Counted from the first letter of the stretch, positions 524 to 60,434 are shown. The stretch is 64,000 bases of DNA from Gammaproteobacteria bacterium (GCA_965277405.1 OZ255726.1:426280-490279), one strand, 5' to 3'. A program made the numbers and translations. Notes: generated by a model from the letters alone, not told the origin.

Positions 524-852
524 GGAAGCTCTGATTAACTCGCTGAGTGAGCGAGTTTGCCTGCAATTGCTGATGATTGCAAGGCGCAAACCGCTGAGCG
601 CATGCCCTAGCATATACGCCAAGGGATGCAACACAGCAAGCATAAACAACTGCCGCATACCAAAAGTATATATATGCAACAGAGGGATGGAAAAAAACGC
701 TGCGCTGCGTCGTTGTAGTACTTGGCAATACCCACAATACCCACAATACCCACAAGACCCAGCAGTGTTAGCTTGGCACTGCACTTAAGTTATCAGCAGC
801 GTTGTTGCGCCGTTGCGCCGTCTCGCCCATCATGGACTTAATCAGAAGTTGC
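524..852. mobile_element. MITE-like element (IS5-family derived), copy with 9-bp microsatellite (caataccca x3) inside
   Basis: Starts GGAAGCTCTGATTAACTC, ends GGACTTAATCAGAAG; shares internal sequence (GCATATACGCCAAGGGATGCAACACAGCAAG) with other copies; preceded by TTAG; right end abuts stop codon of the 853..1842 gene. Confidence 0.7.
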
Positions 853-1842
853 TTATATCGATAAATCGACAACAATACGACCATGTGCTTTGCCAGCCAT
901 CATCTGCTTGGCATACCGCATCAGTCCTCTAAGTCCAACAATATGTTGGATATTGGCATATTCGTCAACAAGCAAATCAGCCAATTGCTGCCAGACTGCA
1001 TGGCGCTTTGCGGTTGGATATTGCACAGAGTCGACTCCGTGCAACTTCACTCCGCGCAGGATAAATGGCATGACTGTTGCTGGCAACAAAAAATCTCCAG
1101 CAAGCCCAGCTGCTATAACTGTTGCTGAGTAGCGCATTTCGCTGAGGATTTGCGCCAACACTGCCCCACCAACCACATCAACCGCACCATCCCATTGTTG
1201 CGTATTCAACGGTGCAACTGTTTGTTGTTGCCATTGTTGCGTGGCAACAACAGTATGTGCCCCGAGGTCTTGCAGGTATTTTTCATGTGCTAAGATGCGT
1301 GTTGTTAACGCATGTACTTCGTAGCCCAGTTTACGCAACAATACAACCGCCACACTGCCGACACCACCAGTTGCGCCACTTACCAGCACTTTTCCTGAAA
1401 CAACACCAGCGTTACGCAGTGCTAGTACGCATAGCATCGCTGTGAGTCCCGCCGTACCAAGTGTCATGGCTTGTATTGCACTCATCCCTATTGGCAGTGG
1501 AACCAACCATTGCGATTGCGCCGATTGATATTCGCTATACCCGCCCCAGTAGCGCTCACCAATGCCCCAGCCGGTCAGAATAACAGCATCACCAACGCTA
1601 TACTTATCGCTTGAAGTTGCCACAACTGTGCCGACAGAGTCGATGCCTGGTACCATCGGCAAAGAGCGAATAATCTTGCCAGTACCAGTAAGCGCCATGG
1701 CGTCTTTATAGTTGAGACTCGAATGTGAAACTTTGATGAGCACGTCACCATCAGGCAAATCTGTTGGCGCAATGCGCTCTATAGCACCACTCATGCCTGC
1801 TGCATCTTGGCGCATGATAAATGCTTTAAACGTGTCTTCCAT
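853..1842 (-). CDS. yhdH: YhdH/AcuI-type NADPH quinone oxidoreductase (MDR superfamily; acrylyl-CoA reductase-like)
   Basis: ORF 853..1881; start moved to ATG at 1842 (MEDTFKAFIM...) with GGTGG upstream; motifs LTGWGIGE..WGGY, GTAGLTAM, VSGATGGVGS, VMPFILRGV typical of the YhdH family. Confidence 0.75.
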   Translation of the reverse strand: MEDTFKAFIMRQDAAGMSGAIERIAPTDLPDGDVLIKVSHSSLNYKDAMALTGTGKIIRSLPMVPGIDSVGTVVATSSDKYSVGDAVILTGWGIGERYWGGYSEYQSAQSQWLVPLPIGMSAIQAMTLGTAGLTAMLCVLALRNAGVVSGKVLVSGATGGVGSVAVVLLRKLGYEVHALTTRILAHEKYLQDLGAHTVVATQQWQQQTVAPLNTQQWDGAVDVVGGAVLAQILSEMRYSATVIAAGLAGDFLLPATVMPFILRGVKLHGVDSVQYPTAKRHAVWQQLADLLVDEYANIQHIVGLRGLMRYAKQMMAGKAHGRIVVDLSI

Positions 1843-1949
1843 AGTCCACCCCCCACAACTGTAAAGCAGGCATCGTACCATGCATCAAGGCGATGTTGCT
1901 GATGAAAGTTATCTGCTCAATTCCATGTGTGCGCTTGCTGAGCGATGCA

Positions 1950-2771
1950 TCAGACAATTTTGGTATAATGATCCAACAACAAAATAATAAATAATGCAAA
2001 TAAATAATATATTGAGACCCAAAATAAGCGGATGGCATGCTGTGGTTGGTGGTGGCGTACCAACTGCCATGTATAAAACCCGAACCACATATTGCACAAC
2101 GTAGAACCAAATAAATACAACAATCCAGACATGCCAGTCACATACGGCAACCACGTCGACATGATCATTAACAGCGTATACATGGCAATTTGCAAGCGGG
2201 TACACTCTTCACCAAACACGCTGATAAGCATCGGTATTTCCACCTTCGCGTATTCTTTTTTGCGATAAATTGCCAACGCCCAAAAATGGGGTGGCGTCCA
2301 CAAAAAAATAATAATCACCAACAACCACGCATACGGGTGTAACTGTCCTGTGACTGCGGTCCACCCGAGTAATGGCGGCATTGCCCCTGATAGTCCGCCG
2401 ATGACTATATTTTGGGCTGTTATTCGTTTCAAAAAACCAGTGTAAATAAGGGCATATCCTGCCCATGCCATCAAGGCAAGCCACGCTGTCAATGGGTTCA
2501 CCAATACATATAATACTGCAAAACCGAGCAGCACCAGCAAGGTTGCAAAGATTAGCACCCGCTGCGCTGGCAATTGCCCGCTAGGTATTGGTCGAGATTG
2601 AGTGCGGTGCATCCGCGCGTCAATATGCCGGTCGATCACATGATTAACCGCCGCACCACTTCCAGCACACAACGCAATACCAAGGTTTCCTAAAATAATA
2701 ACTTGCAGCGGTGGCAAACTATCAACAGCGAGCAGCATCCCTACCACCGCAGTAACAAGCATGAGCAGCAC
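1950..2771 (-). CDS. cyoE: Protoheme IX farnesyltransferase (heme O synthase)
   Basis: 273 aa multi-TM protein with UbiA-type prenyltransferase signature (NHVIDRHIDARMHRTQSRP); ORF-track start is GTG at 2771; true N-terminus probably lies upstream (see finding). Confidence 0.8.
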   Translation of the reverse strand: MLLMLVTAVVGMLLAVDSLPPLQVIILGNLGIALCAGSGAAVNHVIDRHIDARMHRTQSRPIPSGQLPAQRVLIFATLLVLLGFAVLYVLVNPLTAWLALMAWAGYALIYTGFLKRITAQNIVIGGLSGAMPPLLGWTAVTGQLHPYAWLLVIIIFLWTPPHFWALAIYRKKEYAKVEIPMLISVFGEECTRLQIAMYTLLMIMSTWLPYVTGMSGLLYLFGSTLCNMWFGFYTWQLVRHHQPQHAIRLFWVSIYYLFALFIILLLDHYTKIV

Positions 2772-5946: not shown

Positions 5947-6075
5947 TGGAAGCTCTGACTAACTCGCTGATTGCGCGAGTTAGCCTGCAATTGACAGGCG
6001 CATGCCGTAGCATATACGCCAAGGGATGCAACATAGTAAGCAATTGCCGCAAACCAAGAGTATATGCAACAGCGG
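5947..6075. mobile_element. MITE-like element, partial copy (one arm only)
   Basis: GGAAGCTCTGACTAACTCGCTGATTGCGCGAG...GCATATACGCCAAGGGATGCAACATAGTAAG matches left arm of the repeat family; no second terminus. Confidence 0.55.
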
Positions 6076-6091
6076 ACAGCAAACAACAGCG

Positions 6092-6832
6092 CTAGCGTGA
6101 ATCCATAATTTGTCGGTAAGCTCGAGCAATTTCAGCTGTTTTTTTGTTGGCTATTTCAATCATCTCTTCTGGTAGACCACGCGAGGTCAACTTATCTGGG
6201 TGGTTTTCTTTCATCAATACGCGATACTTTCTCTTTACTTCGTTTTTTGTTGCCTGCGGATGCAAATCGAGCACCTGATACGCTTCTGCTATAGTATTTT
6301 CACCAAGCCCCATGGAATGGCGCACCGCCTGCTCGACTGCATCCATAGTATGTTGTGCAATATTCAGTGCCTCACCAATTTTTTTGATAATCGCTTTTTC
6401 TGCACGATGCAACTTGCCATCGCCATACGCGCTATACAACAACATTTGCATCATCGTGGTTTTTAAGTGAGGGTGGGTTATGTATTCGCTTGCCTGTTGC
6501 AATAGCTTTTCAATATTAAAATCATCACGTTTGCCGATGTTAAAAAGCTTAATCGCCGCTTGCTGTTGTTGCTCGTTTAGGCGCATTTGCCGAAAAACTT
6601 CCCTGGCTATATTGATTTCATGTTGCGAAATAACACCATCAGCCTTGGCAATATGTCCCATCAGCGTAAAAACAGTGCTAAAAAAAACCGCCTGCGACTG
6701 CTCGGTGTGGGACATAGAGCTTTTCAGCCCTTTGTCAAATGAATGCCCAAATGCAGCGCCTAGCACCAAACCAAGCGGCCCACCCATGGCAAAGCCAAGG
6801 GCACCACCAACTATTTTTCCCCACCAGCTCAT
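6092..6832 (-). CDS. djlA: Co-chaperone DjlA (N-terminal TM, TerB-like middle, C-terminal J domain)
   Basis: C-terminal J-domain (YQVLDL...KRKYRVLMKENHPDKL); start set to ATG at 6832 (MSWWGKIVG), which overlaps the pdxH stop in an ATGA arrangement. Confidence 0.75.
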   Translation of the reverse strand: MSWWGKIVGGALGFAMGGPLGLVLGAAFGHSFDKGLKSSMSHTEQSQAVFFSTVFTLMGHIAKADGVISQHEINIAREVFRQMRLNEQQQQAAIKLFNIGKRDDFNIEKLLQQASEYITHPHLKTTMMQMLLYSAYGDGKLHRAEKAIIKKIGEALNIAQHTMDAVEQAVRHSMGLGENTIAEAYQVLDLHPQATKNEVKRKYRVLMKENHPDKLTSRGLPEEMIEIANKKTAEIARAYRQIMDSR

Positions 6833-12952: not shown

Positions 12953-14254
12953 TTATTGCTGTTTGAGGATATTCAAACCCACCAAAAGATTAAATGCCTC
13001 TTGTACTTGATAGTCTTCTTTGAGCAAATCATTGATAGTTTTTTTCTGAGACGAAGTTGCTAAATTCGTCGCAGCTTGTTCGTCACTGACAGCGTTACCA
13101 TTATCCAAATGCCCCGCCAAATCAGCTTCTTTAAAAGTTAAGCCTTGGTGTATTTTTTCAATTTTTGCTAAATCGACTTGTATATCAGGTGTGATGCCTT
13201 TCGCTTGAATAGATATTCCATTGGGAGTGTAGTACAACGCTGTGGTTAATTTTATGGCAGCTTGTTGGGCAGGCAATGAAATGACAGACTGCACAGAGCC
13301 TTTGCCAAATGTTTGTGTCCCCATAATCACAGCACGTTTATGGTCAAGCAATGCTCCTGCTACAATCTCAGAAGCAGATGCACTCCCACCATTGACCAAG
13401 ACAACAAGCGGTATTCCATTTGTCAAATCATCACGTTGGCTATAAAAATCACGTTTTGAACTTGCAGTCCTTCCTTTGGTAAACACCACCATTTTATTTT
13501 TTTTAAGCATCGTGTCGCTGACTTTGATAGCCGCATCAAGTCTACCTCCTGGATTATTACGCAAATCCAAAACGAAGCCATTTAAATCACCAGCCTGGCG
13601 CAAGGCATTGATTGCATCTTGAAATTCATCATCAGTAGCAGCTTGAAAATTACTAATTCGAATGTAGCCGATGCTGCGGCCGAGTGCTTCGTAGCGCACA
13701 CTCTTCATTTTGATGATATCGCGAATGATTTTGAATTGCAGCGGTTGCGCCTCGCCTTCGCGAATAATAGTCAGCACAATTGGTGTTCCAGGTTTACCAC
13801 GCATCCGCTGTAGCGCTTGCTCTAATGTCATGCCTTGGACTTGATCTCCATCAAGCTCAACAATGAGATCATTTGACTGTATTCCCGCATGGAAGGCAGG
13901 CGTATCATCGATGGGTGATACCACCCGCACGACACCACTTTTATCCATAACAATATGAATCCCCAATCCACCAAACTGCCCTTGGGTGCGAATTTGCAAG
14001 TCATTGCTTTGCTGTTGATCCAAATATCCTGAGTGCGGGTCTAACCCACTTAGCATCCCACGAATCGCATGACCGAATAGTTGTTCATCAGTGACCTTGT
14101 CAACATAACTGGCGCGAATTGTTTCAAGAATCTCAACAAATTTACGCGTTTCTTCAATCGGCAGCTTATTGCTTCCTGCTGCAAACGTTGGTGAGCTTAA
14201 ACTCAAGAACAGCACGACACCTGCTGTAATACTTCGGTACGGTAATTTGTTCAT
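12953..14254 (-). CDS. S41 family C-terminal processing peptidase (Prc/CtpA-like)
   Basis: Signal peptide, PDZ region, S41 catalytic core (LVNGGSASASEIVAGAL...FGKGSVQ). Confidence 0.85.
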   Translation of the reverse strand: MNKLPYRSITAGVVLFLSLSSPTFAAGSNKLPIEETRKFVEILETIRASYVDKVTDEQLFGHAIRGMLSGLDPHSGYLDQQQSNDLQIRTQGQFGGLGIHIVMDKSGVVRVVSPIDDTPAFHAGIQSNDLIVELDGDQVQGMTLEQALQRMRGKPGTPIVLTIIREGEAQPLQFKIIRDIIKMKSVRYEALGRSIGYIRISNFQAATDDEFQDAINALRQAGDLNGFVLDLRNNPGGRLDAAIKVSDTMLKKNKMVVFTKGRTASSKRDFYSQRDDLTNGIPLVVLVNGGSASASEIVAGALLDHKRAVIMGTQTFGKGSVQSVISLPAQQAAIKLTTALYYTPNGISIQAKGITPDIQVDLAKIEKIHQGLTFKEADLAGHLDNGNAVSDEQAATNLATSSQKKTINDLLKEDYQVQEAFNLLVGLNILKQQ

Positions 14255-14372
14255 GGTGTAATAAATGGATTCATAATCAAGAAGAAAAAATCAACGCATT
14301 ATTATTGCTGTTCTTGCTTTACACGCGTTGCATCTTTCAATAGTGGAGGAATTATTCTAATGTTCAATGATC

Positions 14373-14855
14373 TTACTGCATAGGATGTTGCCAATCTATC
14401 ATCGTCAGCACGCCATTGCCAACTGAAGACGATAAAATCTGCACCCATTGCGCTGATAATTCATCATCAGTAACCTTAATCGTAATATCAAAGCTGGTTG
14501 CAGTAGCGTTTTCAATAGTCACGGCAACACTCGTATTAGCCACAACGCTGCTATTACATATTGCTTGCCAGAGTGTATTCGCATCGATACACCAGACCCC
14601 GTTCACTGCAACTTGCGTTTGAAATCTACGATGTATTGCATAGCGCATACTAGTGAAAATTTGCTCTATTTGCAGCCTGCGCGCAAAAATTGCTGCGGCC
14701 TGCTGTTCGTACTGCAACACTATCAATACTGTCGTCATCAACAATGCCTGCACCATCCCCAGCAGGATAACCGGCACAACAATAAACCCAGCTTGGCGTT
14801 GTCCTGCATGTGTAACTTTCATTGCGTTAGTATGATTGATGTTTTCATCAATCAT
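14373..14855 (-). CDS. Hypothetical protein with N-terminal membrane anchor
   Basis: 160 aa ORF with hydrophobic segment GFIVVPVILLGMVQALLMTTVLIVL; no family recognised by eye. Confidence 0.35.
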   Translation of the reverse strand: MIDENINHTNAMKVTHAGQRQAGFIVVPVILLGMVQALLMTTVLIVLQYEQQAAAIFARRLQIEQIFTSMRYAIHRRFQTQVAVNGVWCIDANTLWQAICNSSVVANTSVAVTIENATATSFDITIKVTDDELSAQWVQILSSSVGNGVLTMIDWQHPMQ

Positions 14856-14988
14856 CAGCAGTCCTCAGATTGCTTAGCAATCAATGCAAAGCGCATCTAT
14901 AAGCAAGCAAATTCGTTGAGTACAGCAAGTAGCGGTTACGCCATGATATGCATTAATCCAATTGTGATGACCGTTTGCAGATACATAG

Positions 14989-15272
14989 GGAAGCTCTGAT
15001 TAAGTCCATGATGGGCGAGACGGAGAAAAAACGCTGATGATAACTAGACGCAGTGGGCAGATAATACTGGTGGTATTATCAAGTACTGCAACGACGTTAG
15101 CGCAGCGTTTTTTCCCGTCCTTCTGTTGAATATACTTTGGGTTTGCTGCAGCGGTACTTGCTGTGTTGCATCCCTTGGCGTATATGCTACGGCATACGCC
15201 TGCGGAATGCGCCTTGCAATCATCAGCAATTGCAGGCAAACTCGCTCCATCAGCGAGTTAATCAGAGGTTCC
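14989..15272. mobile_element. MITE-like element (IS5-family derived), near-complete copy
   Basis: GGAAGCTCTGATTAAGTCC...GAGTTAATCAGAGGTTCC; reverse orientation relative to copy at 524. Confidence 0.7.
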
Positions 15273-15347
15273 ATCGTAGCTGTTATGTGCAAGACCGATA
15301 AAAACCAAGACCACACGAATGCGGCCTTAGTCAGGAGGATCGGTGTG

Positions 15348-16205
15348 CTATGCTGTTGCCATGGTGCGAATATTATTCATCGCCCGTTCTTCAATCTGAC
15401 GAACCCGCTCTGCAGAAATGTTATATTTGTCGGCCAAATCGTGCAGGGTTAGTTTTTCTTCATCAGTGCGCAACCACCGTTGCACAATAATATCACGGCT
15501 GCGGTCATCAAGTTGCGCGACTGCTGCATGCAGTTTTGTTTGCATGTGATTTTGCCAGTTGCTCTCTTCCATGTTTTGTGCAGGATCTTGAGATTGGTCT
15601 ATCAGATATACTTGCGCAGGGAAGTTAGTATCATCGTTATCATCTATCAATGGATCAACGGATGTATCGACTGATGTTAGCCGGTTTTCCATTTCGCGGA
15701 CGTCTTTTTCTGCAACACCCAAGTCGGATGCAATGCTGCTCACTTCGTCATTTGACAGCCAGCCCATGCCTTTTTTCTTACTGCGGAGGTTAAAGAATAA
15801 TTTTCGTTGTGCTTTGGTTGTGGCAATTTTCACCATCCGCCAGTTCTTTAGCACATATTCATGAATTTCAGCTTTGATCCAATGCACCGCAAACGAAACC
15901 AAACGCACGCCCATTGTTGGATTAAAACGTTTTACCGCTTTCATTAAACCAACATTACCTTCTTGCACTAAATCAGCCAGTGGCAGTCCATAACCGCCAT
16001 AGCTACGAGCAATATGCACGACAAAACGCAGGTGGGATAATATCAATTTGCGCGCAGAATCAACTGAATCGTTATGATAATAGTCATTGGCTATTTCTAG
16101 CTCTTGCTCTGGAGTTAAAATTTCAATATTACGAATTGTTTGCAAATACGCGTCAAATCCGCTAGCACTTACTGCTGGTAACGTGGTGGAATATGTGGTT
16201 GCCAT
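15348..16205 (-). CDS. rpoH: RNA polymerase sigma-32 (heat shock) factor
   Basis: 285 aa sigma-70 family with RpoH box QRKLFFNLR and region 2/4 motifs. Confidence 0.9.
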   Translation of the reverse strand: MATTYSTTLPAVSASGFDAYLQTIRNIEILTPEQELEIANDYYHNDSVDSARKLILSHLRFVVHIARSYGGYGLPLADLVQEGNVGLMKAVKRFNPTMGVRLVSFAVHWIKAEIHEYVLKNWRMVKIATTKAQRKLFFNLRSKKKGMGWLSNDEVSSIASDLGVAEKDVREMENRLTSVDTSVDPLIDDNDDTNFPAQVYLIDQSQDPAQNMEESNWQNHMQTKLHAAVAQLDDRSRDIIVQRWLRTDEEKLTLHDLADKYNISAERVRQIEERAMNNIRTMATA

Positions 16206-16369
16206 GTAAAACTCTCTGTCGTTGATGCTATAATTTATTTTTTTCAGTTGGTATGCCCGTACTGCAATCCAGCCTACACAATATACGTTTTGATATAAAT
16301 GATGAATTTGTTACAAGTTGTAAATGAATATTCATTATTTTTCAAGGGTAACACTATTTATCAGCCCTA

Positions 16370-16418
16370 GCGGACTCGCTGATTAAGTGGCTCCATCAGC
16401 GAGCTAGTCAGAGATTCC
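16370..16418. repeat. Palindromic mini-relic of MITE terminus in rpoH upstream region
   Basis: GGACTCGCTGATTAAGTGGCTCCATCAGCGAGCTAGTCAGAGATTCC followed by TTAG; resembles MITE end CTCCATCAGCGAGTTAATCAGAGCTTCC. Confidence 0.4.
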
Positions 16419-16478
16419 TTAGATATATAGTTTTTTTACAATTTTTTCAATAGTCCTGCATCGCATTTTAATAATTCA

Positions 16479-17066
16479 TCAATTGTTTGCTGTCGCAAGC
16501 CGTATAAAGTTTTCTAAAAGTGTATGCCCATGTTCAGAAAGAATTGATTCTGGATGAAACTGTACCCCATACATTGCCGCATCAATAACCCGCAACCCCA
16601 TAACTTCATCGCGGTTATTCTCCGCATCTAAACTCCACGCAGTGACGGCAATCGAGTCTGGGATATCTGTTACAACCAGCGAATGATACCTTCCCGCGAC
16701 AAATGGTGACGGAATATTTTCAAAGACATCACCGCCAAGATGTTCAATTGAAGATGCTTTACCGTGCATAATATGTTGTGCTTGGACTATCCGCGCGCCG
16801 TATGCTTGAGCAATAGCTTGCATTCCCAAGCAAACACCCAAAATGGGGATGCTGCTGCCAAGCTCGCGCACGACATCAAGGCAAATACCAGCATCATCTG
16901 GCCGGCCAGGCCCTGGAGAAATAACAATGCCTTGTGGTGCCATCTGCTGAATTTCAGTTATATTACACGCATCATTGCGCACTACCCGCGGTTCATGTCC
17001 AAGTTCTCCAAGATATTGCACAAGGTTGTAGGTAAAAGAGTCGTAGTTATCTATCATTAACAACAT
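16479..17066 (-). CDS. trpG: Anthranilate synthase component II / glutamine amidotransferase (TrpG/PabA type)
   Basis: 195 aa class I amidotransferase: GVCLGMQ catalytic Cys, FHPES. Confidence 0.8.
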   Translation of the reverse strand: MLLMIDNYDSFTYNLVQYLGELGHEPRVVRNDACNITEIQQMAPQGIVISPGPGRPDDAGICLDVVRELGSSIPILGVCLGMQAIAQAYGARIVQAQHIMHGKASSIEHLGGDVFENIPSPFVAGRYHSLVVTDIPDSIAVTAWSLDAENNRDEVMGLRVIDAAMYGVQFHPESILSEHGHTLLENFIRLATANN

Positions 17067-17142
17067 TATTATGAAACCTCTAACACAGCGAATTTGTTAC
17101 AAAATGGCGTGGGAATAACACAGCAACCGCGCTATCTCCTAA

Positions 17143-17423
17143 GGAACCTCTAATTAAGTCGCTGATGGAGCGAGTTTGATGGCAATTGCTGATGATTGCA
17201 AGGCGCATTCCGCAGGCGCATGCTGTAGCATATACGCCAAGGGATGCAACACAGCAAGTACCGCTACCATCAAACCCAAAGTATATTCAACAGAAGGACG
17301 GGAAAAACGCTGCGCTCACGTCGTTGCACTTGATAATACCACCAGTATTATCTGCGCACTGCGTCTAGTTATCATCAGCGTTTTTTCTCCGTCTCGCCCA
17401 TCATGGACTTAATCAGAGCTTCC
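17143..17423. mobile_element. MITE-like element (IS5-family derived), complete copy with CTAA flanks
   Basis: GGAACCTCTAATTAAGTC...GGACTTAATCAGAGCTTCC; CTAA at 17139-17142 and 17424-17427. Confidence 0.7.
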
Positions 17424-17427
17424 CTAA

Positions 17428-18636
17428 GGAAGCTCTGATTAAGTCCCAAACAACAGCAATATCAGCTACAAAGATATACAATGGTGAATCTATTTGAATA
17501 TTTGAATAAGCGGATAATCTTATGAAACAAACAACTTTTGCCAGTGCTGCATACGACCACAAGAAAGTAACAACAAAACGTGAAAAATTCTTGCAGTCGA
17601 TGGACAAATTAGCTCCATGGCAACGGTTGTTAGCGTTAATAGAACCGCATTATCCCAAGAAAGGGAATGGCCGCCCACCAATTAATATGCAGACCATGTT
17701 ACGCGTTTATTGTTTACAGCAATGGTACAACTTATCAGACCCAGGGGTAGAAGAAGCACTATATGACATGGAAAGCATGCGGCGTTTTGCCCATATAGAG
17801 CTGATAGACGATGCCATCCCTGATGAAACTACCATCTTGAACTTCCGCAGGATCATAGAAAAGCATCAACTCAGCGTCAAGATACTTGCTGTGGTGAATG
17901 AGTATTGTATGGAAAATAATATAACAATCTCACAAGGGTCGATGGTTGATGCCACGATCATCCATGCACCATCATCTACGAAGAATAAAGAGAAAGCCCG
18001 TGATCCTGAAATGCATCAAACAAGGAAAGGCAATCAGTGGTATTTTGGCATGAAGATTCATATAGGAACTGACGCTAATAGCAATATGATTCATAGCGCG
18101 ACAGTGACAGCCGCGAATGAAGCTGACATCAATGAACTCCCAAAATTGCTGCGTGAAACAGATAAGGTTATCTTTGCCGATGCAGGATATACGAGCGACA
18201 GTTATAAACGCGGCTCGCGTCATCTTGGGATAGATTGGCGTGTGAATGATAAACGCAAGCCAAAGCAGCAAATGAGCACCTCGCAGCGCAAACGCAATAG
18301 ACAGAACTCTAAGGTGCGCGCCCGGATTGAGCACTGTTTTCGGGTAATCAAATGTCAGTTTGGTTATAAGAAAGCTCGCTACAAAGGACTAGAAAAGAAC
18401 CGAGTACAAGTATTTTCTTTGCTTGCATTGACGAACTTATACATGCTTCGAGGACGACTAACAGGATAGAACCGCCAAAAATTCAAGAAAAACAGTAAAA
18501 AACAGTAAAAAACAGTAAAACAGCAACACGAAGATCAGCGAAATGATCAAATATTGACCATTGAAAATTATTGCTATTATTTTTTTGGAGTATATGCGAG
18601 TTATTGGAGTATATGAGCGTCTTAATCAGAGCTTCC
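17428..18636 (+). mobile_element. IS5-family insertion sequence (1209 bp) with perfect 16-bp TIRs and 4-bp CTAA flanks
   Basis: Left end GGAAGCTCTGATTAAG at 17428; right end CTTAATCAGAGCTTCC ending 18636; CTAA at 17424-17427 and 18637-18640; single transposase ORF inside. Confidence 0.8.
17522..18469 (+). CDS. IS5-family DDE transposase
   Basis: 315 aa; close resemblance to IS5 transposase (DPEMHQTRKGNQWYFGMKIHIGTD, FADAGY, VRARIEHCFRVIKCQFGYKKARYKGL). Confidence 0.9.
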   Translation: MKQTTFASAAYDHKKVTTKREKFLQSMDKLAPWQRLLALIEPHYPKKGNGRPPINMQTMLRVYCLQQWYNLSDPGVEEALYDMESMRRFAHIELIDDAIPDETTILNFRRIIEKHQLSVKILAVVNEYCMENNITISQGSMVDATIIHAPSSTKNKEKARDPEMHQTRKGNQWYFGMKIHIGTDANSNMIHSATVTAANEADINELPKLLRETDKVIFADAGYTSDSYKRGSRHLGIDWRVNDKRKPKQQMSTSQRKRNRQNSKVRARIEHCFRVIKCQFGYKKARYKGLEKNRVQVFSLLALTNLYMLRGRLTG

Positions 18637-18695
18637 CTAAGGAACCTCTAACACATAATACTTGGCTGCATGGTAGCCGTAATCTATCGAAACAT

Positions 18696-19226
18696 ATGAG
18701 TAAAACACAACAAAAACGCGATATGCACGCCGTACAAGAACTTGGTGAGCAACTTTTGCAATTGCCGCAGCATTGGCAATCATTACTTGATGCTAAGGCA
18801 ATTGATAGCGCACTTGTCAGCCATTTTACTGAATTTAATCACATCCATGCCAAAGAAGCCCGCCGCCGTCATCTCCAATTTATTGGCAAAATACTCCGCA
18901 AGTATGACACAGACCTCATTCTTAAAACGCTATCTCAACTCGATATCAAACAAAAACGGCAAGCGGTCGGTCAGCATGAACTCCAAGAGTTGTGTGTATT
19001 ACTGCTAGCAAGCAACAATGCAGGCTTTGTCGCAGCAACCACTAAGTTTCCAAACATACCGCGGCAAACGCTGCAGCAACTACTGCGGCAATCCCCAAAA
19101 TATAATACAGGTCTACAGCCATGGGCATCACAGGCAAATAAATATCATCGGAAGCTCTGGCAATTGCTTGTCGTTGAAAATCGCCACAGCGTAGCAGCCG
19201 ACGAGCCAGCACAACTCGATGGCTAA
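18696..19226 (+). CDS. yjgA: Ribosome-associated protein YjgA (DUF615)
   Basis: ORF-track start 18561 lies inside the IS; start placed at first ATG outside the IS (18696, MSKTQQKRD); ARRRHLQFIGKILR resembles YjgA core. Confidence 0.65.
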   Translation: MSKTQQKRDMHAVQELGEQLLQLPQHWQSLLDAKAIDSALVSHFTEFNHIHAKEARRRHLQFIGKILRKYDTDLILKTLSQLDIKQKRQAVGQHELQELCVLLLASNNAGFVAATTKFPNIPRQTLQQLLRQSPKYNTGLQPWASQANKYHRKLWQLLVVENRHSVAADEPAQLDG

Positions 19227-19299
19227 CCATCCAGCATCGATGCGAATCACTGCATGATGGCGTTCTCTGCAAATTTATTGCGAAGCTGCAGACCCTTAG

Positions 19300-19584
19300 G
19301 GAAGCTCTGATTAAGTCGCTGATGGAGCGAGGTTGCCTGCAATTGCTGATGATTGCAAGGCGCAAACCGCTAAGCGCATGCCGTAGCATATACGCCAAGG
19401 GATGCAACACAGCAAGTACCGCTTGTAGGCAAACCATCATATATTCAATAGAAGGACGGGAAAAAACGCTGCGCTAACGTCGTTGCAGCACTTGATAATA
19501 CCACCAGTATTATCAAGTGCTGCGCCTAGTTATCATCAGTGTTTTTTCTCCGTCTCGCCCATCATGGACTTAATCAGAGCTTCC
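19300..19584. mobile_element. MITE-like element (IS5-family derived), complete copy with TTAG target duplication
   Basis: GGAAGCTCTGATTAAGTCGCTGATGGAGCGAG...GGACTTAATCAGAGCTTCC flanked by TTAG at 19296-19299 and 19585-19588. Confidence 0.75.
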
Positions 19585-19612
19585 TTAGACAATAGCGTAT
19601 TCAAACTCGCGG

Positions 19613-20368: not shown

Positions 20369-20497
20369 AATGTATCCTTAATTGTGTTGTTAATATTCAA
20401 ATACACATACCATGCTATGTAGGTTGTTGCATTTAGTAAAATGTATTCCTGACTGCGTTGTTAATATGCAAAATACGCATATATCTAGATTGTTACA

Positions 20498-21448: not shown

Positions 21449-21453
21449 CGTCT

Positions 21454-35835: not shown

Positions 35836-35838
35836 ATT

Positions 35839-39660: not shown

Positions 39661-39664
39661 CGAT

Positions 39665-40373: not shown

Positions 40374-40669
40374 GGAATCTCTGATTAACTCCATGATGGA
40401 TAAGACGGAGCAACAACGCTGACGATAACTGTGTTGTGCGCAGGTCACACTGGTGGGTCTTGTGGGTATTAGCAAGTGCTGCAACGACGTTAGTACCGCT
40501 TTTTTTCCGTATTAAGTTCAATAAACTTGTGGTTTGCGGCATTGCTTACGCTTGCTGTATTGCATCCGTTGGCGGATATGCTACGGCAGGCGCTTATGCG
40601 GTTTGCGCCTTGCAAATCATCAGCAATTGCCCGCAAACCCGTGGTATCAGCGAGTTAAGCTGCTGTTCC
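40374..40669. mobile_element. MITE-like element, diverged complete copy
   Basis: GGAATCTCTGATTAACTCC...GAGTTAAGCTGCTGTTCC with recognisable internal core. Confidence 0.55.
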
Positions 40670-43020: not shown

Positions 43021-43097
43021 TGGGGTGGATGATGGGACTTGAACCCACGACAACCGGAATCACAATCCGGGGCTCTACCAGCTGAGCTACACCCACC
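43021..43097 (-). tRNA. tRNA-His: tRNA-His (anticodon GTG) with encoded G-1 and CCA
   Basis: Minus-strand sequence GGTGGGTGTAGCTCAGCTGGTAGAGCCCCGGATTGTGATTCCGGTTGTCGTGGGTTCAAGTCCCATCATCCACCCCA folds as cloverleaf; anticodon loop TTGTGAT; G-1:C73 pair typical of tRNA-His. Confidence 0.85.
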
Positions 43098-43151: not shown

Positions 43152-45980
43152 TTGTTCATGATGGTTTTTAAAGAAACAAAAACACTTCCTTTGCAAGCAA
43201 GCACAAAACAGCAACAACGCATACAAATATTTATTGCCGCGCTTGGTGATTTTGCAGGAAATATTCTAGAAAAATATGGACAGCGTGTTGTGTATAGTAG
43301 CGATAATTCAATATACCAGCAAATCCCAACAATTATCATCCAGCCGCAGAACATTGCTGCGCTAGTTCGGGTGCTGGCGTTACGCGCTACCAAAGCCTTT
43401 TGCTCAATCCCTTTTACCGTTCGTGGCGGTGGCACTGGTACCAACGGGCAGTCGCTGACCCGATTCATAGTGATTGATACGTCATTGCTGCAGCACATTC
43501 ATCCTGTCGATATTGCGAATAAAAACCTGTGGGTTGAAGCTGGTGTTATCCATAGCCTGCTACAAGAACGATTGCGGGTTGACGGCTTGACATTCCCGCC
43601 TGAGCTATCTACTTCGACCCGCGCCACGATTGGAGGAATGATAGCTACTAATGCAAGTGGCAAGGGAAGTTGCGTGTTTGGCAGGACTGCAGACTATATT
43701 TGCGCGCTCGATGTCGTACTTACTGATGGGAGTCGTGTTGTCATACCAAGCCGCGCATCTACCACTGAGCTTGCAGAACTCCACCCAATGCTCGGTGAGT
43801 TTGCGCAATTAGTCACAGAAAAAGGGCACCCGGCAATAGCAGAATTTTTAAGCAAGACAGCACATTTACCGCGCGCCCCAGCTGGATATCAATTAGCCAA
43901 TGTTGCGTATAACAACGGCGATATTAACTGTGTCCAGCTTTGGTGTGGTAGCGAAGGTAGCTTGGGCGTTGTTGTTGCTGCGCAAATACGCGTCATAACA
44001 GCACATATCCACCGTGCAGTCATTGTCACAGAGCATGCGGCATTTAGCCAAGCTCTGGATTGTGCACAACCGCTGGCACGCTTTAAGGCGGCTGCAATTG
44101 AGACATTAGACCAACGAGTGATTGGACTAGCGCATTCAACACAGCAGTGGATTGATGTCGCGCAGGTATTTGCCTTGAATATGGATACCCCATCCGCGAT
44201 CAATATCATCGAATGTAGCGGTAATGATATTGGACTGGTGCAGCGACAAATTGCAGCAATTCAGCAATGGGCAAGCGACAACGCCATTGCGCATGCGGTA
44301 AGTTGGCGCGCTGCAGATATTGCGGCAATCTGGGACTTGCGCGCCAATAGCGTAGGATTATTAGCCAAAATGCCATCCCGTGCCAAACCTGTTGCCTTTA
44401 TAGAAGACACGGCAGTTGCTCCTGAGCATTTATCCGCATATGTTGCTGAACTCACCAAATTACTTGATAATCTCGGCGTTGCATACGGCATGTTTGGCCA
44501 TGTTGATGCAGGCTGCTTGCATGTGCGTCCTGCGCTTGATACCAGTCTTGCAGCAGATCGACAGCTAGTCGTTACTATTACTGATGCAGTCATTGCCTTG
44601 TTAAAAAAATATAATGGTGTGCTGTGGGGCGAACACGGCAAAGGGTATCGATCAGCATATGCACCTGAATATTTTGGTGATGCGTTGCAAGGGTTTATGA
44701 ACGCGAGTAAACAATGTTTTGATCCGTTTAATATCTGTAATCCAGGAAAAATTGCTCACCCAACTGGTGGAGATTTAGTGGCGATTGACGCTGTGCCAAT
44801 GCACGGCGAGTCTTTTGCTGCTGTTAGCGACAATGTGCGCAACATGTATCAACAAGCATTTGCATGTAATGGCAATGCTGCGTGTTTGAATCAATCCACC
44901 ACGCAATTGATGTGCCCATCGTATCAAATCACCCAAGATCGCGTGCAAAGCCCCAAAGGTCGCGCAGTATTACTCCGGCAATGGTTAGTTGAGCGGGTAA
45001 CTGGTGATCAAAATAATTTGGAGGCAGAGTTATATATCTCATTAGCAAGTTGTTTAGGGTGTCAAGGATGTACGACAGGCTGCCCAGTTGAGGTCGATAT
45101 TCCAAAATTGAAGTCACTGTTTTTGCAAGAATACTATCAAAAACATCGCATGCCGTTGCGCGAGTGGTGCATATCTTGCATTGAAGAATGTTCGATAATT
45201 GGTGGAAAAGTGCCTGCAATCAGCAATATCCTGATGCGATTTTCCGCGTTGCTGGGGATGCACCATTTACCGCGTTGGCGACCGCCACAATCCATGCATA
45301 ACCATAACATTACCCAACCTAGCTGTGTCGTGGCAGCGGATCCATATACATGGGCGTATGATGGAGGCGTTATTGATAGCCTGTTTGCGTTGCTAGCATC
45401 AATCGGCGAAAACCCGCAGCTGTTGCCAGTGCTGCCCTGGGGTAAAGCCGCCGCAACAGTTGGAGCAATGAACAAAGCCGCAGCACAACGCGCTGCAGTC
45501 GCAGACCTAGTTAGCCAGCAAAATGTGCCAGTGATTGTGCTTGAAAGCGCCGTTAGCCTGACAACAGGCAACGATACTATCCACAATGCAGTCACTCCAG
45601 TAGCAGATTTCCTAGCGCAGCGCTTAGCAAAGTTGCCTCAGTCAGCTCTCCGTGGTGTTGTCGTGCAGCTCTGCCCGCATTGTAGTGAACAAGCTCTGTT
45701 TACCCAGTTACCGAAACAATGGCAGCTGGTGTTTGAGCACTGTGGTGCGGCAGTGAGTATAGTTACAGCAGGTTGCTGTGGCATGGCTGGCGCGTTTGGG
45801 CACCGCAAAGAGTATTTAAAGATGAGCGCGGATATTTTTAAACGCAATTGGCAGCCATCACTTGATACAAATGCAATCATTCTGGCAACAGGCTTTTCAT
45901 GCAGGAGTCAATTGCATAAAAATAATGTTTCTTCTGTGCATCCTGTAGAGTTGCTAGCAAAGACGCTACATGGCAAGTAA
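43152..45980 (+). CDS. FAD-binding and Fe-S-binding oxidoreductase (YdiJ-like, D-2-hydroxyacid dehydrogenase type)
   Basis: 942 aa; N-terminal FAD_binding_4-like region (GGGTGTNGQS), central Cys clusters (CLGCQGCTTGCP), C-terminal CCG-type Cys motifs. Confidence 0.75.
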   Translation: MFMMVFKETKTLPLQASTKQQQRIQIFIAALGDFAGNILEKYGQRVVYSSDNSIYQQIPTIIIQPQNIAALVRVLALRATKAFCSIPFTVRGGGTGTNGQSLTRFIVIDTSLLQHIHPVDIANKNLWVEAGVIHSLLQERLRVDGLTFPPELSTSTRATIGGMIATNASGKGSCVFGRTADYICALDVVLTDGSRVVIPSRASTTELAELHPMLGEFAQLVTEKGHPAIAEFLSKTAHLPRAPAGYQLANVAYNNGDINCVQLWCGSEGSLGVVVAAQIRVITAHIHRAVIVTEHAAFSQALDCAQPLARFKAAAIETLDQRVIGLAHSTQQWIDVAQVFALNMDTPSAINIIECSGNDIGLVQRQIAAIQQWASDNAIAHAVSWRAADIAAIWDLRANSVGLLAKMPSRAKPVAFIEDTAVAPEHLSAYVAELTKLLDNLGVAYGMFGHVDAGCLHVRPALDTSLAADRQLVVTITDAVIALLKKYNGVLWGEHGKGYRSAYAPEYFGDALQGFMNASKQCFDPFNICNPGKIAHPTGGDLVAIDAVPMHGESFAAVSDNVRNMYQQAFACNGNAACLNQSTTQLMCPSYQITQDRVQSPKGRAVLLRQWLVERVTGDQNNLEAELYISLASCLGCQGCTTGCPVEVDIPKLKSLFLQEYYQKHRMPLREWCISCIEECSIIGGKVPAISNILMRFSALLGMHHLPRWRPPQSMHNHNITQPSCVVAADPYTWAYDGGVIDSLFALLASIGENPQLLPVLPWGKAAATVGAMNKAAAQRAAVADLVSQQNVPVIVLESAVSLTTGNDTIHNAVTPVADFLAQRLAKLPQSALRGVVVQLCPHCSEQALFTQLPKQWQLVFEHCGAAVSIVTAGCCGMAGAFGHRKEYLKMSADIFKRNWQPSLDTNAIILATGFSCRSQLHKNNVSSVHPVELLAKTLHGK

Positions 45981-46138
45981 GTCATGGCATCTGCCGATGG
46001 ATGCTCGCACCCATGCATAGCAGTGGCATTCCCATGCATAGCAGTGGCATTCAATGTGCAAAGTGAGATGGCAGACTGCAGAGTCGCTTCATCAGCAGGA
46101 TTGATCGCACCAATATATGTGCCAAAGCTTAATTGTTG

Positions 46139-46699: not shown

Positions 46700-46900
46700 A
46701 GCGGGGGATGGTGTGCCCACGTTACCGTCTCACAGTTGTTTCCTTGAACCGCGGCTCAAGGGTATGGCAACCAAGTGGTATGTTGGGATCGTAAGACGTA
46801 GTCACGATACACGCCCATACCGGAGAGTTACCATAATAGTTTTCTCATTGGCTCAGAAACATACTTTAATAACGAATAACCCAGGCACGCAATCAGTATA
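46700..46900 (-). ncRNA. ssrS: 6S RNA (SsrS) candidate; boundaries approximate
   Basis: Immediately upstream of and co-oriented with ygfA, the conserved position of ssrS in gammaproteobacteria; contains GUUUCUGAG near 5' region and hallmark hairpin CCCUUGAGCC-GC-GGUUCAAGG. Confidence 0.45.
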
Positions 46901-48380: not shown

Positions 48381-48740
48381 TTGCGTATTACCGCACTGAG
48401 CTCTGGCAAACAAATTTCGCTTGTCATCGCCCAACACACCTTCAAATGTCATCATGCGAATTTTGTCACGTTTGTGCGCACCAGTGATCAGCAACTATGT
48501 CGGTATGTCGCGATTATTGCCAATCGAAATATAAAAAACGCCGTGCTCCGCAACTACACAAAACGCATCATAAGAAATGCGCTACGCAGCTTTGATTGTG
48601 GTGTGCAATGCGACGTCGTGATTATTGCTAAACGTGCTGCCAAGCAAGCCAATAAGGTGCAGCTGCGTGCAGCGATACAAAGCACTATGCGGCGTGTGCA
48701 AAAAAAACACACAGCTAGCAACCTCTGCTTAAATCCATGA
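48381..48740 (+). CDS. rnpA: Ribonuclease P protein component
   Basis: 119 aa basic protein directly downstream of rpmH in conserved rpmH-rnpA-yidD-yidC order; start codon uncertain (TTG at 48381). Confidence 0.75.
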   Translation: MRITALSSGKQISLVIAQHTFKCHHANFVTFVRTSDQQLCRYVAIIANRNIKNAVLRNYTKRIIRNALRSFDCGVQCDVVIIAKRAAKQANKVQLRAAIQSTMRRVQKKHTASNLCLNP

Positions 48741-48776
48741 TACAGCGAGTTAACCAGAGGTTCCTCTACTCATAAC

Positions 48777-52039: not shown

Positions 52040-52393
52040 TCGCAATAGCGGTGGGCAAATATGCAACGCATGTTTGGGTATAGCAAAGTCCGCTAGCGGC
52101 GACTTAAGCAGAGCTTCCTTAGGGAAGAAAAACAAAAAGTCAACTTCTTAGTCTGTTGTTTTTGAACATCAATGCGTCGAGAAACTTAACAGTAGGAATT
52201 ATTCAGAGCTGCCATAGTATTCAAGCAACAATACTTAAAAGTGAATAAAAAGTTACAACAATAATTTTTATTCACCGCTGGAATGTTGTAGACTGTGGAT
52301 GGAGGATTACGAACGGTCTCTGATTAAATCATAGCAGCGCTGCTATCGTCAACTTGATCAGTGGTATTGAAAACACACTAAAGGAGGAAAACC

Positions 52394-58381: not shown

Positions 58382-58948
58382 TCAAGGTGAATTGCTAGAC
58401 TTCCATTTAATGCTGCACCCTATCGATGGAATTTGCGGCTGTGGTGGCGGCTTACCTGCTAACAGCGCATCGACTGCACCGCGGATGTCTGTACCGCTAA
58501 CTTTGACTCCATTCCCTGGGCGCGAGCCATCAAACTGACCACGGTAGAACAGTGTATGCTGCGCATCGAAAACAAAAAAATCTGGGGTGCACGCGGCTGA
58601 ATATGCTTTGGCAACGCTTTGTTGTTCATCAAACAAGTACTGATACACCAGTTGGTGCTCGTTGACTTCATCGATCATTTTTTCTGGGCTATCGGCTGGG
58701 TAGTTGGCAACATCGTTGGAGTTTATCCCAATGACGACCACTCCTTTTTGCTGCACATCAGCAGCAAATATGTTGATTTCACTACGCAGGTGTTTGACAA
58801 ACGGGCAGTGATTGCTCAAAAACATCACCACTAACGGACTGCCGCTATGCTCAATGAGGCTGACCTGCTTGCCAGAATGAGGGTTTGGTAACACAAAATT
58901 AGCTGCACGGCTGTGCAGCGCAACCATTGTCGACTCAACTGCTGCCAT
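58382..58948 (-). CDS. Thioredoxin-fold protein (redoxin-like)
   Basis: 188 aa; VVMFLSNHCPFVKHL resembles thioredoxin-fold active-site region; family not resolved by eye. Confidence 0.5.
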   Translation of the reverse strand: MAAVESTMVALHSRAANFVLPNPHSGKQVSLIEHSGSPLVVMFLSNHCPFVKHLRSEINIFAADVQQKGVVVIGINSNDVANYPADSPEKMIDEVNEHQLVYQYLFDEQQSVAKAYSAACTPDFFVFDAQHTLFYRGQFDGSRPGNGVKVSGTDIRGAVDALLAGKPPPQPQIPSIGCSIKWKSSNSP

Positions 58949-59025
58949 GATGACCTCCGCGTGTTATAGTATCCGCAGCGGAAAACCATGGGTTTTTACC
59001 TAACTCTGCGGATGTCATTTAAAAT

Positions 59026-60378
59026 ATGCAGTGTACAACTTACCGAGCAACTATGGCTGCAAATTCGCTGGAAAACTGTCCCATTCACCGCTCAATAACT
59101 GATTGGTTTGGAGCATATCCAAGCCAACAACCGCTGCTAGTTGCTGTATCTGGCGGGATAGACTCGATGGTGCTGCTCGATGCTTTGCTACACCAAGCAA
59201 ATGTAAAAATCCAAGCGCTGCACTTTCACCACGGCAATGTATTCTCAAATAGCAATGACGCGATGCGTGCTTGCTGTGTGGCGCAATGTGCCCAGCGCGG
59301 CATTGAATGTAGTGTGGTCGATTTGGATGTTACCACGCTAGGCAGCAAAGAAACTGCCGCCAGAAACGCACGCCGTCAGGCGCTTGCAACCTTGCTTGCA
59401 GCACAGCAATACGCGCTGTTGGCGCACCACAGCGACGACCAACTAGAAACATTGTTGTTGCGGCTCGGCCGCGGCACTGGAACCTTTGGAATGCAGGGCA
59501 TACAGCCACGCAGTGCGATTGGTCGCGGTTGGATTGGCAGACCACTATTAGCAGTGACGAAGCAACACATCCACCAGTATGCAAGGGAACACGGCATCGA
59601 ACACTATGAAGACCCCAGCAACGCCGATGATGGTTTCGACCGTAATTATATACGCAAGCATATTGGACAACCTTTGCTGCAACGTTGGCCCAAGAGCAAC
59701 CTAGCCGCACAGCAATGTGCCGCGCAAACACAGCAGTGGTTTGCCATCATCGATACCGTGATTGATAAGATGATGATGCCAGGCGCAGCCGCGATTAGCA
59801 GTGCTGCACTCGCGGCGTTTAGCAAAGTACAACAAGGGATGCTGTTGGCACAATGGTTTGCTAATACTGTTGCCCAGCAAGGGTTGTACCATCATATTCA
59901 GCGGCAGCAACGCCACAGCATGATGGCAAGATATTCGAGCGTAGGCAGTGGTTTTAAAGAGCTATATGCATGGGATAATTGGCGACTATATCGCTATCAA
60001 GCTGCCGTGTATTGTGTTGTGTTGCCAGAGGTGCAACCAATCGAACATGGCAGGCATCGCCAGCAATTGGGGTGGGGAACCTTGCAAGTATCCACCAGCG
60101 CGTGGCAAATAATTACTGACTCTAATTATAGCATTCGCTATCGACAACACGGCGACTGCTGGGCGGATTCGCGTAAGCCAATCAACAAGAGGATGCAACA
60201 ACATGTATTGCCGTGGATGCGCGCAGGCTGGCCAATTATCTGTAATCATCACCATGTCGTAGCAATTATTGGGCTGCCGACCAAGCTGCAATCAAACACT
60301 CTACACCTAAGCAACAAACTTGAGAAAGTGCTTGCTGATATCAGCTGGGACACCAATACTAACATTGCCAATGCCTAA
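59026..60378 (+). CDS. tilS: tRNA(Ile)-lysidine synthetase
   Basis: PP-loop SGGIDSMVLL; 450 aa. Confidence 0.85.
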   Translation: MQCTTYRATMAANSLENCPIHRSITDWFGAYPSQQPLLVAVSGGIDSMVLLDALLHQANVKIQALHFHHGNVFSNSNDAMRACCVAQCAQRGIECSVVDLDVTTLGSKETAARNARRQALATLLAAQQYALLAHHSDDQLETLLLRLGRGTGTFGMQGIQPRSAIGRGWIGRPLLAVTKQHIHQYAREHGIEHYEDPSNADDGFDRNYIRKHIGQPLLQRWPKSNLAAQQCAAQTQQWFAIIDTVIDKMMMPGAAAISSAALAAFSKVQQGMLLAQWFANTVAQQGLYHHIQRQQRHSMMARYSSVGSGFKELYAWDNWRLYRYQAAVYCVVLPEVQPIEHGRHRQQLGWGTLQVSTSAWQIITDSNYSIRYRQHGDCWADSRKPINKRMQQHVLPWMRAGWPIICNHHHVVAIIGLPTKLQSNTLHLSNKLEKVLADISWDTNTNIANA

Positions 60379-60434
60379 GGAAGCTCTGATTAAGTCCATG
60401 ACGGGCGAGACGGAGAAAAAACGCTGATGATAAC
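60379..60434. mobile_element. MITE-like element, 56-bp terminal fragment between tilS stop and next gene start
   Basis: tilS TAA at 60376-60378 directly followed by GGAAGCTCTGATTAAGTCCATGACGGGCGAGACGGAGAAAAAACGCTGATGATAAC. Confidence 0.55.

Follow-up and report, generated by a model that had tools for sequence, protein, structure and literature searches.

As described in ISfinder, insertion sequences of the IS5 group are ~1-1.5 kb long, contain one ORF, have termini starting with GG and duplicate 4 bp at YTAR. The Correia elements of Neisseria, a dense intergenic MITE family in a ~2-Mb genome, have long terminal inverted repeats and come in full-length and internally deleted size classes; they duplicate TA, have no identified parent IS and contain documented promoter, IHF and RNase III sites. 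The closest described analogue of the repeats analyzed here is MITEPsy1 of Pseudomonas syringae pv. phaseolicola, a non-coding element with ~18-nt termini in common with ISPsy2, an IS5-family IS of ~1.2 kb. MITEPsy1 is 100 nt long, has the termini GGAAGGTCTGAAAAAGCC, is present in about 6 copies per genome, duplicates 4 nt at CTAG or YTAA and was trapped transposing in vivo; the same study also describes a tandem insertion together with a second IS within a third (PMC3189936). The BrickBuilt MITE of Porphyromonas gingivalis carries the termini of the IS5-family elements ISPg1/ISPg9, and a 23-nt minisatellite makes up most of the element (PMC4596501).

The repeats described here lie in a stretch of 64,000 nucleotides (the window) from an uncultured, deeply divergent gammaproteobacterium, whose MnmE is 46-48% identical to its best homologue outside its own lineage. 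We consider them, with a probability of roughly 85%, to be non-autonomous transposable elements (MITEs) belonging to an IS5-group IS not described before. They are small and non-coding, have inverted termini and a duplication of fixed length, and form a dispersed family with a co-resident IS, as bacterial MITEs do. In our own comparison their termini match those of MITEPsy1 at 13 of 18 positions, with no sequence similarity past the termini; compared with MITEPsy1 their main form is longer (~285 bp) and palindromic almost throughout, they also include a 47-bp form, and their mobility is something we infer. Like BrickBuilt, they have the termini of resident IS5-family elements, an interior without relation to the IS and an internal tandem repeat of variable number, but the flanking duplications are inconsistent in BrickBuilt and regularly 4 bp here, where the 9-bp repeat is minor (PMC4596501).

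Seven near-complete copies had been proposed in the preliminary description, and all seven align over their full length to a single consensus by BLAST, MAFFT and nhmmer (E from 1e-82 to 6e-100; Table 1). Together with ~10 fragments, these full copies (281-329 bp) constitute one repeat family, at a density of ~1 full copy per 9 kb of window, and the IS and MITE sequences combined occupy ~6% of it. Four further full copies were found in other contigs. Pairwise identity among the ~285-bp copies is 76-96%, the closest pair being no more alike than 96%. The loci listed earlier as fragments are mostly real, but several bounds or identities had to be corrected: 5947-6075, 29815-29888 and 39665-39803 become 5948 to about 6098, 29818-29888 and 39643-39795; at 52094-52120 there is a solo terminus (52101-52118), after which come TTAG and GGAAG; and 16370-16418 is no fragment, but a complete 47-bp mini-element at 16372-16418. 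That list lacked a second 47-bp mini-element (48718-48764), recovered by a Hamming-distance pair scan, and an 11-bp terminus remnant (18641-18651), whose two variant bases are identical to those in the left terminus of copy 17143-17423. The 9-bp repeat CAATACCCA noted in copy 524-852 is likewise real, with 4.0 copies in Tandem Repeats Finder and not three; unit number varies from 1 to 5 across copies, with 5 units for this same copy in the sister assembly L086, and the repeat is a minor share of MITE length.

Table 1. Elements of the repeat family, the resident IS and an empty target site (window positions; strand as +, - or. where unassigned).
Feature	Position	Strand	Remarks
Full MITE, 329 bp	524-852	+	9-bp repeat x4 at 726-761
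Truncated MITE, left-end part	5948-6098	+	Between convergent genes; also in L086
Full MITE, 284 bp	14989-15272	-	Flanks ATAG/ATCG
47-bp mini-MITE	16372-16418	.	A 13-14 nt centre between two terminal repeats; forms a hairpin
Full MITE, 281 bp	17143-17423	+	Perfect CTAA/CTAA; that CTAA alone separates the copy from the IS
Autonomous IS, 1209 bp, IS5 family, IS5 group	17428-18636	+	Transposase ORF 17522-18469
11-bp terminus remnant GGAACCTCTAA	18641-18651	+	4 bp past the IS end
Full MITE, 285 bp	19300-19584	+	Perfect TTAG/TTAG duplication
Full-length MITE, 292 bp	23625-23916	+	Right terminus degenerate; begins directly after the hisD stop codon
71-bp left-end fragment	29818-29888	-	
Full MITE, 289 bp	37581-37869	-	Flanks without match; also in L087
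153-bp left-end fragment	39643-39795	-	Touches the stop codon of ORF 39796-40275(-); also in L087, L088
Full-length MITE, 296 bp	40374-40669	-	Most diverged, 76-80% identity to other copies
Second 47-bp mini-MITE	48718-48764	.	Hamming-distance pair scan
Solo right terminus, then TTAG, then GGAAG	52101-52127	-	
Empty target site, single CTAA	58999-59002	.	Filled in L084
56-bp right-end fragment	60379-60434	-	

The IS contains a single, intact ORF for an IS5-family DDE transposase of 315 aa, which matches PF01609 (DDE_Tnp_1) with 104 bits, PF05598 (DUF772) with 67 bits and NCBIfam NF033581 with 327 bits (cut-off 140) over profile positions 2-285 of 285. A 10-bp tandem repeat is present at 18488-18520. 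The 1209-bp length of the IS, its GGAAGC... termini and the CTAA/CTAA or TTAG/TTAG flanks found on four IS copies are those of the IS5 group. IS5 itself, as described in ISfinder, also has termini starting with GGAAG and a 4-bp duplication at YTAR, and E. coli IS5, ISPpu21 and ISPst7 resemble the resident IS in their single DDE transposase of ~315-330 aa and length of ~1.2 kb. More IS copies occur in L001, L002, L083, L084 and L086, and the transposase cluster comprises 61 member sequences, indicating that the IS is abundant. At the amino acid level the transposase is ~50% identical to those of named ISs and, among 5.8 billion proteins, at most 76% identical to anything outside its own cluster; exact-protein searches with hisD, the window transposase reference and ORF 32861-33625 found no match. 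By its sequence, this appears to be a previously undescribed IS5-group element, which would warrant a new IS name.

The identity of termini between repeats and IS claimed earlier was confirmed. With up to 3 mismatches tolerated, the window contains 21 occurrences of the terminal 18-mer GGAAGCTCTGATTAASTC (0.02 expected by chance), and the IS matches this 18-mer at 18/18 positions on the left and 17/18 on the right. The exact terminal 16-mer was confined to loci of the same organism (6 of 88 loci fetched). The right end of the IS matches the left end of the MITE at 22 of 24 nt, and its left end matches the right end of the MITE over 19 nt. Similarity is limited to these 19-24 nt per end, and the MITE interior has none to the IS, so that the MITEs are not simple deletion derivatives of it. 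We infer from the ends that the MITE descends from the resident IS, whose transposase is presumably its mover. The site 19300-19584, with a MITE in the window and a full IS at the identical site in the sister contig L083, might suggest that each copy arose in place, when a full IS formerly present there lost its interior. That origin is so improbable that we rejected it: MITE interiors are mutually homologous over their full length and unrelated to the interior of the IS, and independent deletions cannot be the source of a shared interior. The terminal inverted repeats of the MITE, an 18-nt core, extend imperfectly to ~32 nt, so the similarity between the two MITE ends is longer than that between either end and the IS. 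This would be expected if another, unseen autonomous element with ends closer to the ~32-nt termini had moved the MITEs, and the sequence examined amounts to ~150 kb, the genome being at least 2.17 Mb in size. We regard such an element as improbable, since the IS carries the identical 18-nt core at its termini, IS and MITE agree in target, in the length of the duplication and in tandem adjacency, the resident IS is abundant, and no other transposase family was seen in the loci examined.

Flanking TTAG/CTAA, said before to be frequent, was indeed found, with perfect 4-bp duplications at the better-preserved copies 17143-17423 and 19300-19584 and at the IS. Among the older copies in the window, 3 of 4 flank bases match in three and there is no match in two. 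Perfect 4-bp flanking repeats were present at 8 of 17 elements tabulated, plus a mini-element in L084 (see below), and nearly all the remaining flanks are YTAR or one base off. Decay or inter-copy recombination would explain the copies without matching flanks and are candidate causes. Elements often lie exactly 4 bp from the end of another, forming tandem arrays: there are ~9 such junctions among roughly 30 elements, in a sample biased by the choice of three of the four source regions for containing the IS, and we estimate that roughly a thousand YTAR tetranucleotides are expected per 64 kb. The transposase may target the tetranucleotide abutting a resident terminus, giving head-to-tail IS/MITE arrays, with the 47-bp two-terminus hairpin as a sufficient substrate; this proposal is tentative, and we think it somewhat doubtful. 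End-adjacent insertion would then be a property of the resident transposase, and some arrays could instead stem from recombination between copies. Such targeting of ends has been documented in the IS30 and IS3 families; to our knowledge it has not been described in the IS5 family, and we found no report for IS5 in the literature searched.

At one site a 47-bp element is polymorphic between assemblies. A third mini-MITE is present in the sister assembly L084 at window position 58999-59002, reading CTAA + 47-bp element + CTAA, whereas the window and L085 have a single clean CTAA there, in DNA that is 99.4-99.8% identical overall. On comparison of the two sequences, the filled L084 site and the empty window site show that an element of the family is an insertion with CTAA duplication; the polymorphism could have come about through gain of the element in L084 or through its precise loss from the other lineage. 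No further filled/empty MITE sites were found in ~55 kb of orthologous sequence, the differences there being short tandem-repeat lengths and 15 bp at the right end of copy 524-852. At preserved sites in 99-99.8% identical sister assemblies, all five full copies are present (5/5), indicating that the family is old and mostly fixed. The other two full-copy sites coincide with rearrangement breakpoints in L083, where collinearity ends exactly at the left end of copy 23625-23916, and at 52101-52127 a degenerate ~1.15-kb IS occupies the exact position in L084. With copies common to the sister assemblies and the closest pair just 96% identical, there is no evidence of current activity of the 285-bp form. 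Mobilization in trans, as first suggested, is therefore well supported as past history rather than as ongoing activity.

As previously stated, the MITE copies carry no transposase: they have no conserved ORF, the ORFs within them are disrupted by indels between copies, and no significant Pfam family was found in these ORFs, the best hit having an E of 0.08 and 13 bits where the cut-off is 27. Gene callers run ORFs into the MITEs. All 14 insertion sites are intergenic (14/14), though ORFs make up 89% of non-element sequence, and element pieces touch four stop codons. The decayed right terminus of copy 524-852, for example, directly adjoins the alcohol-dehydrogenase ORF 853-1881(-) at its stop codon, and fragment 60379-60434 occupies the whole gap between the stop of a tilS-like ORF (60378) and the start of an epimerase ORF (60438). 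This strictly intergenic placement, often at gene 3' ends, would suit structured elements with a host function, comparable to REP/BIME or ERIC, that act as terminators, stabilise mRNA or bind proteins, and that either resemble IS ends only secondarily or have been domesticated. A very stable fold (long imperfect palindromes forming hairpins, with a z of about -12 to -13 for either strand) with an A6...T6 inverted pair inside would suit them too. We consider a host function very unlikely, however. The target contains TAA or TAG, so that copies often come to lie right at stop codons, and together with purifying selection this explains the placement. RNAalifold on 11 copies gave a long hairpin with a covariation term of +2.3 and scattered double changes only, that is, no compensatory change and hence nothing to indicate that an RNA structure is under selection. 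Over 14000-24500, consensus scans for terminators and promoters showed no enrichment over shuffled sequence (11 vs 10.4 and 17 vs 21.6 expected), and no terminator fell within a MITE, the sole MITE-internal match being weak and promoter-like (9/12); Rfam matched no MITE, either on the whole window at the gathering threshold or on 14900-24000 at E<=1. Nothing comparable to the promoter, IHF and RNase III sites of the Correia elements was shown in the MITEs here. Both orientations occur, and copies are decaying, truncated and variable in length. The REP/BIME class was also rejected: its 20-40 bp palindromic units go with a TnpA(REP)/RAYT gene and make no target duplication, whereas the units here, of 281-329 bp, end in IS5-type termini and are flanked by 4-bp duplications, and no RAYT-type or Y1-transposase gene was found among the window ORFs examined.

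If the repeats are MITEs of the resident IS, its DDE transposase would recognise the 16-18 nt termini GGAAGCTCTGATTAAG(TC) and cut YTAR targets (CTAA/TTAG) with a 4-bp stagger, whose repair would duplicate the four bases. Any DNA between two such termini would be mobile wherever a full IS at another locus supplied the transposase, including the ~285-bp palindromic elements and the 47-bp form, which holds little beyond two termini. Past amplification would have left copies surviving in intergenic DNA only, and new insertions would favour the duplicated tetranucleotide beside an existing terminus, producing tandem arrays. Most ~285-bp copies are now old, fixed and decaying. IS copies and repeats still mark rearrangement sites between strains.

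The same family is present in other contigs of the organism, in ERZ26859072 (L001, L002, L083) and ERZ26859071 (L086). A 25-mer of the MITE core had no match in 185,579 GTDB species genomes or in JGI metagenomes, nor had a 27-mer of the right end in JGI metagenomes, and an nhmmer search with the MITE profile gave no hit in the 80 loci of other organisms that surround IS5 relatives. The family is real, yet it belongs to an ordinary textbook class of bacterial repeat and leaves the understanding of MITEs unchanged. It documents a new IS5-group IS and its MITEs from a gammaproteobacterium that is uncultured and deeply divergent, and because the repeats mark breakpoints between assemblies that are otherwise 99-99.8% identical, they matter for assembling, binning and comparing these genomes. 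The 47-bp form and the 4-bp tandem junctions offer a compact picture of the cis needs and insertion preference of an IS5-type transposase.

The seven full-length elements originally picked out from the sequence alone do form one family, since BLAST searches of the window with the proposed copies, two multiple alignments and an nhmmer profile agreed on this set; they are listed below with the truncated pieces. The claim that these MITEs, a ~285-bp non-coding repeat family, have the termini of the resident IS5-family insertion sequence (IS) was also borne out. The 18-nt motif GGAAGCTCTGATTAASTC matched the window 21 times at up to 3 mismatches, compared with 0.02 matches expected from shuffles, and it bounds the IS as well. 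Together, the elements and the IS account for 3,830 of the 64,000 bases (~6%). The 9-bp repeat that the preliminary description placed in the copy at 524-852 is present, in 4.0 units (726-761) rather than the three proposed.

MITE copies and structured RNAs in the window
Feature	Position	Strand	Score
Full-length MITE copy	524-852	+	
Full-length MITE copy	14989-15272	-	
Full-length MITE copy	17143-17423	+	
Full-length MITE copy	19300-19584	+	
Full-length MITE copy	23625-23916	+	
Full-length MITE copy	37581-37869	-	
Full-length MITE copy	40374-40669	-	
Truncated MITE piece	5948 to ~6098		
Truncated MITE piece	29818-29888		
Truncated MITE piece	39643-39795		
Truncated MITE piece	60379-60434		
tRNA	43024-43096	-	64.7 bits
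6S/SsrS RNA	46710-46890	-	48.2 bits (Rfam gathering score 46.4, just exceeded)

The IS (17428-18636, 1209 bp) has CTAA on either side and is bounded by the same termini as the MITEs. Its single ORF (17522-18469, 315 aa) has Pfam matches to DDE_Tnp_1 and DUF772 and scored 327 bits against the NCBIfam IS5-family equivalog NF033581 (cut-off 140), with the whole profile covered. Of the named ISs, ISPpu21 and ISPst7 come nearest, at ~50% identity, and in a search of 5.8 billion proteins the transposase fell in a cluster of 61 members, everything outside being at most 76% identical. Among GTDB species genomes, the nearest relative (75%) is held by Candidatus Endonucleobacter bathymodioli; unlike the window IS, that element has the termini GGAATCTCTAAATAAG, with CTAG as its duplication. 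The exact 16-nt terminus of the window IS was found only in loci of this organism. Beyond the transposase stop of the IS lies the 10-bp tandem repeat AAAAACAGTA (18488-18520), whose unit number differs between IS copies: it is 3.3 in the window copy and at least 6 in one on L002 (8660-9910), a contig of assembly ERZ26859072. This variation explains the range of IS lengths, 1201-1251 bp.

At each end, MITEs and IS have 19-24 nt in common, the MITE left end resembling the IS right end (22/24 nt) and the MITE right end the IS left end (19 nt); no match to the IS was found for the MITE interior. Neither a conserved ORF nor a significant Pfam match nor an Rfam match was found in the MITEs. Each copy folds, on either strand, as one long imperfect hairpin (z of about -13 and -12), and a compensatory pattern was absent across eleven copies: the palindromy is a feature of the DNA and does not reflect a selected RNA structure. 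The flanks are YTAR tetranucleotides (CTAA/TTAG), perfectly duplicated around the IS, the window MITEs at 17143 and 19300 and several copies on other contigs, and matching at 3/4 positions or not at all around older MITE copies. The family has all the structural hallmarks of a MITE, in support of the initial reading of these elements as non-autonomous, with IS5-type ends and putatively mobilised in trans. A scan for paired termini also revealed a mini-element of exactly 47 bp at 16372-16418 and 48718-48764 (0.08 expected by chance), and a third in a sister assembly. In each, ~32 nt of a MITE end is joined to an opposite terminus of 15 nt, and a hairpin fold is possible.

All 14 insertion sites are intergenic, with ORFs making up 89% of the non-element sequence; by our own arithmetic, random and neutral insertion would give this result with a probability of ~1e-13. 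Four elements touch a stop codon, as expected of a target with TAA or TAG in it, whose duplication keeps the stop. Elements frequently lie exactly one 4-bp target away from another terminus. The window has an array of MITE, CTAA, IS, CTAA and an 11-bp terminus remnant, and another such junction at 52101-52127; among the ERZ26859072 contigs L001, L002 and L083, picked for containing or adjoining the IS, L001 has IS then MITE twice, and L002 has IS, IS, IS as well as MITE then IS. These arrangements suggest an insertion preference for the tetranucleotide beside a resident end, with the caveats that these three contigs were picked for the IS and that recombination could also have had a part in the arrays. 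The MITE at 17143-17423 has the 15-nt string CTAAGGAACCTCTAA at its left edge (17139-17153), and the string recurs directly after the IS (18637-18651), where it bears two variant bases private to the terminus of that MITE. This hints at a duplication or gene conversion at the junction, for which a simple insertion model does not account.

Two ENA metagenome assemblies encode proteins identical to the transposase, FKBP and MnmE of the window, MnmE being also found on a 2,174,577-bp NCBI contig, and orthologous loci match the window at 98.7-99.8% identity. Elements at 524, 5948, 14989 and 17143 are common to the window and L086 (a contig of ERZ26859071), those at 39643 and 40374 to the window and two sister loci, L087 and L088, and the copy at 37581 also occurs in L087. 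At the site of a single CTAA in the window (58999-59002), the sister locus L084 has CTAA, a 47-bp mini-element and CTAA, identifying this family member as an insertion with a 4-bp duplication; either L084 gained the element or it was precisely lost elsewhere. At another site, where just a solo terminus, TTAG and GGAAG are left in the window, L084 carries a degenerate IS. In L086 the IS at 17428 is inverted and the 9-bp repeat has five units. L083 carries a full IS at the exact site of the MITE at 19300-19584, and its collinearity with the window stops exactly at the left terminus of the MITE at 23625-23916. The elements therefore mark places where near-identical genomes differ in structure; within the ~55 kb compared, no further insertion polymorphism was found.

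Directly after hisD, L083 (1-367 of contig ctg10508) has an RsmG-like methyltransferase fragment (motif VVDLGSGNGFP) in place of that MITE and the downstream genes of the window, the breakpoint falling exactly on the TTAT/ATAA flank of the MITE. L086 (3244-3290) has an intact right end of the MITE at 524-852 followed by a 15-bp near-duplicate (TAATCAGAACTTCCC / TAATCAGAAGTTGCT), of which the window (835-855) keeps only the second, degenerate unit. A public aldehyde dehydrogenase gene call (584 aa; L086 1425-3179, window up to ~761) begins inside this MITE, so that a real protein is annotated with MITE sequence as its N-terminal extension.

Pairwise identity among eleven full MITE copies averages 86% (range 76-96%), and IS copies are 91-98.5% identical. 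With only 0.2-1.3% divergence of orthologous DNA, the ~285-bp family must have been amplified long before the strains split, and signs of present activity were absent.

The host is a deeply divergent gammaproteobacterium. The housekeeping genes of the window include hisD, an rnpA ORF, yidC, mnmE, rpsI and rplM, and the best MnmE homologues outside its own lineage are 46-48% identical, the named ones being gammaproteobacterial. Rfam gave no matches in the window besides the two RNAs listed in the table. The window (43152-45980) and L084 have an intact 942-aa FAD-oxidase/Fe-S ORF that is called as four fragments in ERZ26859071 (L085 2466-5146), possibly because it is a pseudogene in that strain or because of sequencing errors. 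Just downstream, the 21-bp tandem repeat CCCATGCATAGCAGTGGCATT (window 46010-46052; L084 5291-5311; L087 5177-5197) is present as 2 units in the window, against 3 in a sister assembly. From the IS load and a gene fragmented in one assembly, a host-associated lifestyle is no more than our guess. The type I restriction-modification locus (window 29961-37494; L087 13736-20462) has hsdR and hsdM genes and an S subunit that carries a fused nucleotidyltransferase domain; its specificity-gene region varies among assemblies, with an Abi_2 gene there in L087, whose similarity to the window is lost between 34013 and 34437.

Exact-match searches with the MITE core 25-mer found nothing in either 185,579 species-representative genomes or the JGI metagenomes, and a right-end 27-mer was likewise absent from the JGI metagenomes. 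The nearest described analogue is MITEPsy1/ISPsy2: MITEPsy1 has the IS5-family termini GGAAGGTCTGAAAAAGCC, a 4-nt duplication and a CTAG/YTAA target, and its transposition has been seen experimentally (PMC3189936). BrickBuilt of Porphyromonas gingivalis is a MITE combining IS5-family termini with a variable internal tandem repeat (PMC4596501). The present family is a further case of this known class, to which it adds, modestly, a 47-bp form, tandem 4-bp junctions, placement next to stop codons and a high local density.
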